DNA from: Escherichia phage ALITA
Direction: 5' to 3' (one strand)
Length of the DNA: 64,000 nucleotides
Sequence record: PP359570
Shown: positions 7,775 to 8,441 of the stretch, piece by piece
Position numbering within the stretch: the stretch's first letter is position 1
Layout of the letters: every line of letters starts with the position of its first letter
Made by a program: the position numbers and the translations under genes
The notes under the pieces: model-generated
Databases searched by the model: none
What the model saw: only the letters and a program-made list of their open reading frames with translations
What the model was told of the DNA's origin: nothing

Positions 7775-8206
7775 ATGATGATACTGACTATGTTAATAAA
7801 CCTACTGAAGAATAAATGGGTTAGGTATTTTGTTCTTATTATAGCACTGTTTGGTGGTTTGTATGTTGGTTTAAACAAATTACACGATGACGTGTATGCA
7901 CAAGGCTACAACGCAGGTGTTGCTAAACAAGAACAAATATTACAACAAAACCAAATTAAAGCAAAACAGCAATTCGATATCTTACAAGCAAAAGCAGATT
8001 CAGAAAGATCTAAATTGAATGAAAAAATTCATTCATTAACGAAAGAAAGAAATGATCTTCTTACACAACTGGATAAGAAGAGTAATAACATAACACAAGA
8101 GAGAATAGATTATGCGAAAACATCTTCTGGCGCTATGTCTTGTTTTAGCCCTAATGATGACGGGTTGCGCATCATCAACAACAGCTTCCCAGCCTCTACT
8201 GATTGA
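7775..8206 (+). CDS. i-spanin (Rz-like): N-terminal TM helix plus coiled-coil periplasmic domain
   Basis: 143-aa ORF; hydrophobic WVRYFVLIIALFGGLYVGL then Q/K/E-rich heptad-like region; 3' end overlapped by lipoprotein gene in another frame. Confidence 0.5.
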   Translation: MMILTMLINLLKNKWVRYFVLIIALFGGLYVGLNKLHDDVYAQGYNAGVAKQEQILQQNQIKAKQQFDILQAKADSERSKLNEKIHSLTKERNDLLTQLDKKSNNITQERIDYAKTSSGAMSCFSPNDDGLRIINNSFPASTD

Positions 8207-8441
8207 GCAGTGTAAAGCTGTAGCAACACAACAAATAAAAGCCCCTGATTCTGTCAGTATGGAAAAACCATCTACCCCTGTTTTATATACTCCCAATCAA
8301 ATAAAGAAAGGGGTTACAAGATCAGAGGTAGTTGATAATCAAACTTTAAACAACGCTTTGTGGGAAAAAGATAGGATAAAACTTATCAGTTTACAAAACT
8401 ATATTAAAACATTACAAAGTGAAGGAATAATTTCTAATTAG
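8112..8441 (+). CDS. o-spanin (Rz1-like outer-membrane lipoprotein)
   Basis: 109-aa ORF starting inside the preceding gene in a different frame; signal peptide with lipobox-like LALMMTGC followed by ASSTTAS. Confidence 0.5.
   Translation: MRKHLLALCLVLALMMTGCASSTTASQPLLIEQCKAVATQQIKAPDSVSMEKPSTPVLYTPNQIKKGVTRSEVVDNQTLNNALWEKDRIKLISLQNYIKTLQSEGIISN

Follow-up and report, generated by a model that had tools for sequence, protein, structure and literature searches.

In the 64,000-nucleotide stretch of Escherichia phage DNA analysed here (the window), two short genes lie immediately upstream of the gene for the large terminase subunit, the second of them starting inside the first. The arrangement raises the question of whether the two together encode the spanin of this phage and, if so, how they relate to the remaining lysis genes. 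An earlier note had read them as an i-spanin and an o-spanin in the overlapped architecture, with the only recognisable cell-wall hydrolase about 50 kb away and no obvious holin nearby. Our analysis indicates that the two genes very probably constitute the two-component spanin of a phi92-like coliphage, and that this pair is most likely what disrupts the outer membrane of the host when infection ends.

Around the pair (6700-10600), the sequence shares 99.3-99.6% identity with Escherichia phage phi92 and with ~45 other Justusliebigvirus genomes (Stephanstirmvirinae), and the region of the candidate endolysin gene (56600-59200) has the same nearest genomes. Judged by sequence, the source of the window is thus a virulent, phi92-like coliphage (Justusliebigvirus, ~147 kb), a member of a group that is popular for therapeutic use. 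Genes for packaging, head, tail and tail fibres occupy the + strand of the window and replication genes the - strand; a tRNA island contributes 15 tRNAs. The features discussed below are collected in Table 1.

Table 1. Features of the spanin locus and of other genes considered for lysis (positions are those of the window)
Feature	Position	Strand	Remarks
Terminator-like hairpin	7040-7064		5' of the small + strand genes that precede the spanin genes
Promoter-like site	7087-7115		5' of the small + strand genes that precede the spanin genes
Small genes	7106..7426 and 7566..7739	+	followed by the spanin genes and then the large terminase gene
i-spanin gene	7775..8206	+	143 aa; PHROG phrog_4297 'Rz-like spanin', 1.9e-40
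Codons of the i-spanin transmembrane (TM) helix	7817..7873	+	residues 15-33, WVRYFVLIIALFGGLYVGL
o-spanin gene	8112..8441	+	109-aa precursor, ~91-aa mature lipoprotein (predicted); phrog_1267 'Rz-like spanin', 2e-20
Lipoprotein signal peptide and lipobox Cys codon	8112..8168	+	MRKHLLALCLVLALMMTG followed by C; pattern match
Dual-coding overlap	8112..8206	+	95 nt; i-spanin C-terminal tail in frame 0, o-spanin N-terminus in frame +1
Terminase ribosome-binding site (RBS), AGGAGG	8440..8445	+	annotated as RBS in phi92
Large terminase subunit gene	8450..10534	+	GTG start; phrog_979, 9.3e-221; Pfam Terminase_6N
Gene for 81-aa protein with two TM segments	34016..34261		inside the tail-fibre module
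Candidate SleB-like endolysin gene	57966..58475	-	Pfam PF07486 Hydrolase_2, 6.5e-20; NCBIfam SleB, 8.5e-14; PHROG endolysin families

Two overlapping genes ahead of the terminase gene

The PHROG match of the upstream protein extends over residues 2-140, nearly its whole length. Its best 19-residue Kyte-Doolittle window (mean 1.84) falls on residues 15-33 and, because K12, K14 and R17 lie N-terminal of this segment, the positive-inside rule predicts an N-in/C-out (type II) topology with a short cytoplasmic stretch at the N-terminus. In the AF2 models, which for both spanins are single-sequence predictions, the i-spanin forms one continuous helix over residues 14-120, with pLDDT >90 over ~21-110. 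The remaining residues (121-143) make up a tail modelled with low confidence and as disordered; it carries the protein's one cysteine, Cys123, which is kept in 6/6 lineages compared, within the most conserved motif of the protein, SCF.PNDDGL.IIN.SFP. The phi92 homolog, gp118, is 98% identical and differs by three conservative substitutions; a published spanin census assigns to it one coiled coil, at residues 54-115 (supplement of Kongari et al. 2018, BMC Bioinformatics 19:326, PMC6139136). The hydropathy profile, the long modelled helix and the phi92 entry thus agree with the N-terminal TM helix and coiled coil that the earlier note had proposed for this gene.

In the downstream protein the PHROG match spans residues 1-108. 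Its N-terminal sequence, MRKHLLALCLVLALMMTGC, conforms to a lipobox rule of the PROSITE PS51257 type, in which a K or R among residues 1-7 is followed by a hydrophobic core free of charges and by [M][T][G]C; Cys19 is the predicted lipidated residue, as expected from the MTGC that had suggested a lipoprotein at the outset. Since the +2 residue of the mature protein is Ala, not Asp, we infer sorting to the outer membrane; relatives have Ser, Thr, Ala or Asn at this position, and never Asp. A second cysteine, Cys34, is the only periplasmic one and is likewise kept in 6/6 lineages compared. The AF2 model consists of the signal helix, a low-confidence linker (residues 20-68) that includes Cys34, and a confident C-terminal helix (residues 70-103), the best conserved part of the protein. 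Among the 171 open reading frames of the window with 60 aa or more, 4 carry the lipobox pattern, compared with 0-3 per shuffled window; apart from the o-spanin gene, these are internal or antisense frames. The pattern is therefore only moderately specific, and the case for the o-spanin gene rests on conservation.

Neither protein reached a family cutoff in Pfam, where no spanin family appeared at E <= 0.1, and an NCBIfam scan of both gave no meaningful match. These libraries simply do not contain a phi92-type spanin family. The identity of the pair is instead given by published material. The o-spanin matches that of phi92 at every residue (100% identity), and in the census phi92 and phAPEC8 share their i-spanin and o-spanin families; its supplement lists the phi92 pair as 'ovl', with the i-spanin at 55669-56101, the o-spanin at 56006-56336, an overlap of 95 and lengths of 143/109 aa (PMC6139136). 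Lengths, +1 frame, overlap and position upstream of the terminase gene are all equal between the phi92/phAPEC8 spanins and the pair in the window, and nothing of substance distinguishes the window's pair from that of phi92. i-spanin and o-spanin are also annotated at this locus in the GenBank records of BME3, Nernie, EmilieFrey, PaulScherrer and ESCO5, and the BME3 paper mentions a spanin pair. Hence, the reading as an i-spanin/o-spanin pair is upheld by the PHROG families, by the sequence features and by identity with a catalogued pair; by the same token it was already known, and its scientific novelty is small.

The gene directly 3' of the pair, for the large terminase subunit, is the first of the packaging genes, in agreement with the position originally described. 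The terminase RBS begins within the stop codon of the o-spanin gene (TAG, 8439..8441), and no terminator-like site was seen between 8206 and 8450; the spanin genes and the terminase gene are thus probably co-transcribed, at a late stage. As a separate observation, the N-terminal region of the terminase contains an intein, established by alignment to an intein-free homolog; a PDB sequence search for the intein in that region returned no match.

Conservation and comparison with known spanin systems

The o-spanin start lies 337 nt 3' of the first position of the i-spanin gene, which places it in the +1 frame, and the gene runs 235 nt past the i-spanin stop, so that the 95-nt overlap and the change of frame are as first noticed. 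In the o-spanin frame, the overlap encodes the signal peptide and the first mature residues. A tblastn search with the 109-aa o-spanin matched 135 phage records, all of them Stephanstirmvirinae or apparently mislabelled copies of such genomes; identity is 100% within Justusliebigvirus, ~67% in Phapecoctavirus and as low as 34% in Klebsiella phage KP13-16. The locus was compared in five diverged Stephanstirmvirinae (Tr1, phi1_175008, ESCO5, 05F01 and KP13-16). In every one of the five, both open reading frames are present, offset by +1 and overlapping by 80-110 nt, together with the lipobox and both periplasmic cysteines; this argues that the pair consists of real genes. Across the 6/6 lineages the lipobox reads MTGC, ITGC, MMGC, VVGC or VSGC.

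The divergence within the overlap points the same way. Expressed as pairwise differences per site at codon positions 1/2/3, the values outside the overlap are 0.52/0.37/0.62 for the i-spanin frame and 0.37/0.29/0.60 for the o-spanin frame; variation peaks at the third position in either gene, as is normal for a coding sequence. Inside the overlap they are 0.38/0.30/0.28 in the i-spanin frame and 0.28/0.23/0.40 in the o-spanin frame. All positions are thus damped (0.23-0.40), and the least constrained sites are those that serve as o-spanin position 3 and i-spanin position 1. Given that this pattern matches the prediction for +1 dual coding, we conclude that both genes are real and that both frames are under selection.

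A comparable pair occupies the same place in the Vequintavirinae (rV5, PVP-SE1 and Av-05), where the large terminase gene is again directly preceded by the spanin genes; this order is present in Av-05 and in Seunavirus KE22, and is described for LL12, another of the Vequintavirinae, in the LL12 paper. Like that of the window, the Vequintavirinae i-spanin has a TM segment, a helix and a Cys-containing C-terminal tail, and the o-spanin has a lipobox and a C-terminal helix of the form NN..(W)..DR.KL..LQ.Y(I/V)KT. Pairwise E-values between the window and Av-05 (2e-11 for the o-spanin, 1e-5 for the i-spanin) indicate distant homology. In both groups, moreover, the endolysin gene is distant from the spanin genes and no holin is recognised. 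Two differences stand out. The Vequintavirinae genes are 'separated' and share no more than the 4 nt of an ATGA, whereas those of the window are overlapped; and the Vequintavirinae o-spanin lacks the extra N-terminal segment of the mature protein that bears the periplasmic cysteine in the window's o-spanin. The census places the Vequintavirinae and phi92-type spanins in different families (PMC6139136). A duplication of the overlap as the origin of the Vequintavirinae arrangement was sought by aligning i-spanin 3' with o-spanin 5' DNA, and by aligning the overlap of the window against the i-spanin 3' end and the o-spanin 5' end; none of these alignments scored above shuffled controls. Homologous pairs at one locus, overlapped in Stephanstirmvirinae and separated in Vequintavirinae, represent a small, clean change of architecture.

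The prototype of the overlapped arrangement is lysB/lysC of phage P2: there, the o-spanin reading frame begins within the 3' part of the i-spanin gene, shifted by +1, and continues past its end. The P2 genes belong to a lysis cassette that also includes the genes for holin and endolysin, whereas the window's pair stands beside the terminase gene. The overlapped class is defined in the census (PMC6139136). The term 'overlapped' fits the window's pair; the label 'Rz/Rz1 architecture', which the earlier note had attached to it, does not, since lambda represents the embedded class. Similarity to lambda Rz/Rz1 lies in the combination of a type II helical inner-membrane protein with an outer-membrane lipoprotein in the +1 frame (PMC6139136). 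In other respects the two systems differ: Rz1 is fully embedded in Rz, proline-rich and ~40 aa long when mature, unlike the longer o-spanin of the window, which is not embedded; a hinge divides Rz into two helices, whereas a single continuous helix is modelled for the i-spanin of the window; the window's pair does not match the lambda-type Pfam families; and the lambda genes lie in a lysis cassette, which those of the window do not. T4 is closer in its general layout, being, like the window's phage, a large virulent myovirus with unclustered lysis genes, and its o-spanin, PseT.2, is also comparatively large with a predicted C-terminal helix (PMC6139136). PseT.3/PseT.2, however, have the separated architecture and belong to other sequence families than the window's pair.

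Alternative readings and the start of the o-spanin gene

Certain features count against the reading of these genes as a spanin pair. No Shine-Dalgarno sequence was seen 5' of the i-spanin start, and the phi92 RefSeq record remarks of this gene that it has no identified RBS and bad Prodigal statistics; 5' of the o-spanin start, a weak GAGAG is the only candidate. The mature o-spanin is large, with few prolines (5) and a long C-terminal helix, in which it departs from lambda Rz1 and comes closer to T4 PseT.2. Its Cys34 would lie near the outer-membrane end, while the lone cysteines in the census are nearer the interaction site (PMC6139136).

In one alternative reading, the 109-aa protein acts as a stand-alone outer-membrane lipoprotein in some other role, such as receptor blocking or superinfection exclusion (compare T5 Llp and Cor), with an unrelated membrane protein encoded upstream and the overlap a result of genome compaction. 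The only hard features of the pair are indeed the TM helix of one protein and the lipoprotein signal of the other, and a lipobox pattern by itself has low specificity; Pfam and NCBIfam offer no spanin match; and the mature lipoprotein is longer, and poorer in proline, than the classical o-spanins. Nevertheless, we regard this explanation as very improbable. The two genes are coupled, either overlapped or abutting, across two phage subfamilies, and both proteins match PHROG spanin families. Furthermore, the best conserved parts are the C-terminal helix of the o-spanin and the C-terminal tail of the i-spanin, as would be expected of an interface. The gene lies in a late block, whereas exclusion genes are usually early, and without this pair the genomes would be left with no spanin at all.

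If the 109-aa protein is accepted as the o-spanin of a spanin pair, its start codon matters, and here existing records disagree. In phi92 RefSeq, gp118 is named 'Rz-like spanin' and the o-spanin gene is absent. VEcB has the o-spanin cut to a 60-aa 'hypothetical protein' with a start equivalent to 8259, and in BME3 and Nernie the start is placed at an internal Met (equivalent to 8157 and 8154, respectively). All three late starts delete the lipoprotein signal. Taken at face value, these automatic annotations, the empty position in phi92 RefSeq and the weak Shine-Dalgarno sequence 5' of 8112 would mean that 8112 is not used and that the product is a shorter non-lipoprotein beginning at 8154, 8157 or 8259; there would then be no o-spanin, and the overlap would be small or absent. 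We consider this less probable still. The Met at 8112 and the full signal peptide, with its n-region K/R, hydrophobic core and lipobox Cys, are conserved at the protein level in 6/6 lineages despite 33-66% overall divergence, and it is this conservation of the whole signal peptide that supports the 8112 start. A start at 8154 or 8157 would yield a truncated 'MMTGC...' and leave the conserved codons upstream of it without function. Moreover, o-spanin genes are very often missed or given a wrong start because gene callers penalise overlaps, and the 109-aa form is the one that Kongari et al. chose for phi92 (PMC6139136). The practical value of the present analysis therefore lies in annotation: 8112 is the biologically sensible start, as opposed to the missing or truncated genes of current records.

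A unimolecular spanin of the T1 gp11 type was also considered and rejected, as the 109-aa protein has no hydrophobic segment past its signal peptide.

Proposed lysis pathway, endolysin and candidate holins

How the pair might act can be outlined from the lambda and T4 spanin models, from which topology, lipidation, complex formation, disulfides, membrane fusion and timing are all taken; the general mechanism and the role of the cysteines are reviewed with the census (PMC6139136). The genes head the late packaging and structural block, and the spanins would probably be made late, alongside the virion proteins. The N-terminal helix of the i-spanin would insert into the inner membrane in the N-in/C-out orientation, with a helix of ~85 residues projecting into the periplasm. 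The o-spanin, for its part, would be exported and receive its lipid at Cys19; after cleavage by signal peptidase II it would be sorted to the outer membrane, where its flexible linker and C-terminal helix would meet the conserved C-terminal tail of the i-spanin. By our own estimate, ~85 helical residues past the membrane measure ~125 Å, which together with the o-spanin linker and helix would be enough for the periplasm of E. coli. Cys123 and Cys34 would probably each link two copies of the same protein through a disulfide bond, as happens in other spanins, so that two homodimers, one anchored in each membrane, would be joined via their C-terminal parts. A complex of this kind would span the periplasm threaded through the peptidoglycan mesh and be restrained by it. 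Once a secreted SleB-like endolysin had degraded the peptidoglycan, the complexes would be free to move and to collapse, and their collapse would fuse the inner and outer membranes as the last step of lysis.

The candidate for such an endolysin is the hydrolase mentioned at the outset. Its Hydrolase_2 match bears out the assignment, and it lies 49.5 kb from the spanin pair on the opposite strand, so that the lysis functions are dispersed, as had been claimed. This dispersal is no peculiarity of the window, since it is the known layout of the phi92-type group and of T4 (PMC6139136). In relatives, the homolog is annotated as 'endolysin' or 'cell wall hydrolase'. Its N-terminus, MSIKTFVAIALLSLTAFTFTPVVAQA followed by EA, resembles a Sec signal or a signal-anchor-release (SAR) segment, and this segment also aligns in rV5-like homologs. 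Because of it, the endolysin is probably exported without a large-hole holin, and the presence of such a secretion signal or SAR-like segment alters the kind of holin that should be looked for.

Those tail and baseplate genes of the window that were scanned with Pfam gave no further match to a cell-wall hydrolase domain. Relatives encode a second, T4-lysozyme-like lysozyme of 166 aa (VEcB 22337..22837), in a region outside the window. A second i-spanin was considered in a 113-aa protein encoded at 37948..38289, which has a TM segment, a coiled coil and a weak match to phrog_739 'Rz-like spanin' (5e-4). It was rejected because an acidic N-terminus, together with KQK following the TM segment, predicts an N-out/C-in topology, and because it has no adjacent lipoprotein partner.

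As for the holin, the small open reading frames neighbouring the spanin genes or the endolysin gene have no TM segments, and thus no small membrane protein stands beside either, in line with the earlier impression. The complete VEcB genome has no holin annotation, and the genes labelled 'hol-like chemotaxis' and 'membrane protein' there matched no lysis family. The LL12 paper states that a holin could not be identified, and the BME3 paper only proposes candidates of 61 aa and 81 aa. One reading of these observations is that phi92- and rV5-like myophages lyse their hosts without a canonical holin, the timing being set by an unrecognised pinholin-like protein. We think this unlikely, albeit far less so than the two alternatives weighed above; it is suggested by an endolysin that is apparently Sec-exported, by spanins tied to the packaging operon and by the lack of a recognised holin genome-wide. 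Within the tail module, the 81-aa protein with two TM segments is conserved across phi92-, rV5- and PVP-SE1-like phages. It is called a holin in 0/371 records, one of which describes it as a 'structural protein', and it might be one candidate for a pinholin-like timing protein.

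The large terminase and its mini-intein

Alignment to an intein-free homolog places a mini-intein in the large terminase, whose gene lies directly downstream of the overlapping spanin pair. The insertion interrupts the Walker A P-loop (GGAAG/CVSAETEY...HIFVTGN/SGKS, with slashes at its borders), and at the same point the intein-free terminase of the Seunavirus KE22 reads IIGGAAG-SGKSYLL. In Av-05, which like KE22 belongs to the Vequintavirinae, the aligned terminase carries a larger insertion at a site identical to that of the window intein. Alignment with distant terminases begins only at about residue 182-201 of the window protein. 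Sequence searches against Pfam, NCBIfam and PDB did not flag the intein, and some GenBank records label this region an 'N-terminal endonuclease domain'. Inteins in the terminase P-loop are of an already known kind.

Among GenBank records MG065639, MG065656, MG065689 and others, several that bear the name 'Campylobacter phage' (host C. jejuni) have proteins 100% identical to those of the coliphage group. The related Phapecoctavirus-like terminase is also matched, at ~85% identity, by two further records, an 'Acinetobacter phage' and a 'Pseudomonas phage'. These deposits appear to stem from contaminants or to carry wrong labels.

Features of the window outside the spanin pair
Feature	Coordinates	Strand	Match or basis
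HNH homing-endonuclease gene	5648..6013	+	phrog_2255, 7.5e-22
106-aa protein, basic KRGRGRP motif	7106..7426	+	phrog_3330 (function not assigned)
48-aa ORF	7669..7815	+	phi92 annotation gp117, 'Weak Prodigal statistics'
Mini-intein, 157 aa	8576..9046 (residues 43-199 of large terminase, 8450..10534)	+	alignment to intein-free homolog
81-aa protein, two hydrophobic segments and charged C-terminal tail	34016..34261	+	phrog_1322 'membrane protein', 4.7e-27
113-aa protein, N-terminal TM helix and coiled coil; tail-fibre module	37948..38289	+	phrog_15210 'lipoprotein', 2e-70
SleB-like endolysin	57966..58475	-	N-terminal hydrophobic signal or SAR-like segment

Surroundings of the spanin pair

The spanins and the large terminase gene are found two genes downstream of the gene for the 106-aa protein, which is itself preceded by a terminator-like hairpin (7040-7064) and then a promoter-like site (7087-7115). 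Pfam and NCBIfam scans of its product gave no match; it might be an unannotated small terminase subunit. The 48-aa ORF, which begins before 7566..7739 ends and runs on into the first codons of the i-spanin gene, is left unannotated in most relatives and is probably spurious.

The spanin-terminase linkage is not universal in the Stephanstirmvirinae, because in Klebsiella phage KP13-16, the most diverged relative compared within this subfamily, the overlapped spanin pair (1122..1779 of the locus taken from it) is followed by tRNA genes instead of the large terminase gene.

Membrane and lysis-related proteins elsewhere

The 81-aa protein is encoded between tail-fibre genes on one side and baseplate-wedge genes on the other, and is kept in 371 phage records, rV5- and PVP-SE1-like phages among them. 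None of these records labels it a holin, and one calls it a 'structural protein'. Matched by length, it appears to be the class II holin candidate of 81 residues that was proposed in the BME3 paper.

Despite its 'lipoprotein' match, the 113-aa protein has no lipobox. It also shows a weak match to phrog_739, 'Rz-like spanin' (5e-4); however, an i-spanin reading is probably wrong, since the distribution of charges suggests an N-out/C-in topology.

The hydrophobic N-terminus of the endolysin carries an AQA/EA motif of cleavage type. Such a signal or SAR-like segment implies that export would be Sec-dependent, with a pinholin or something else, rather than a canonical holin, as the probable trigger. 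T5-like homologs align by tblastn from about residue 42 onward only, and the segment thus lies outside these matches.

The tRNA island

In phi92, the interval between tRNA-Gly and tRNA-Gln holds a 42-aa ORF labelled 'rIII lysis inhibition accessory protein', which the window does not have. The HNH homing-endonuclease gene is placed between tRNA-Gln and tRNA-Pro, inside the tRNA island (3540..6648); it is missing there in phi92 and BME3 but found in VEcB.
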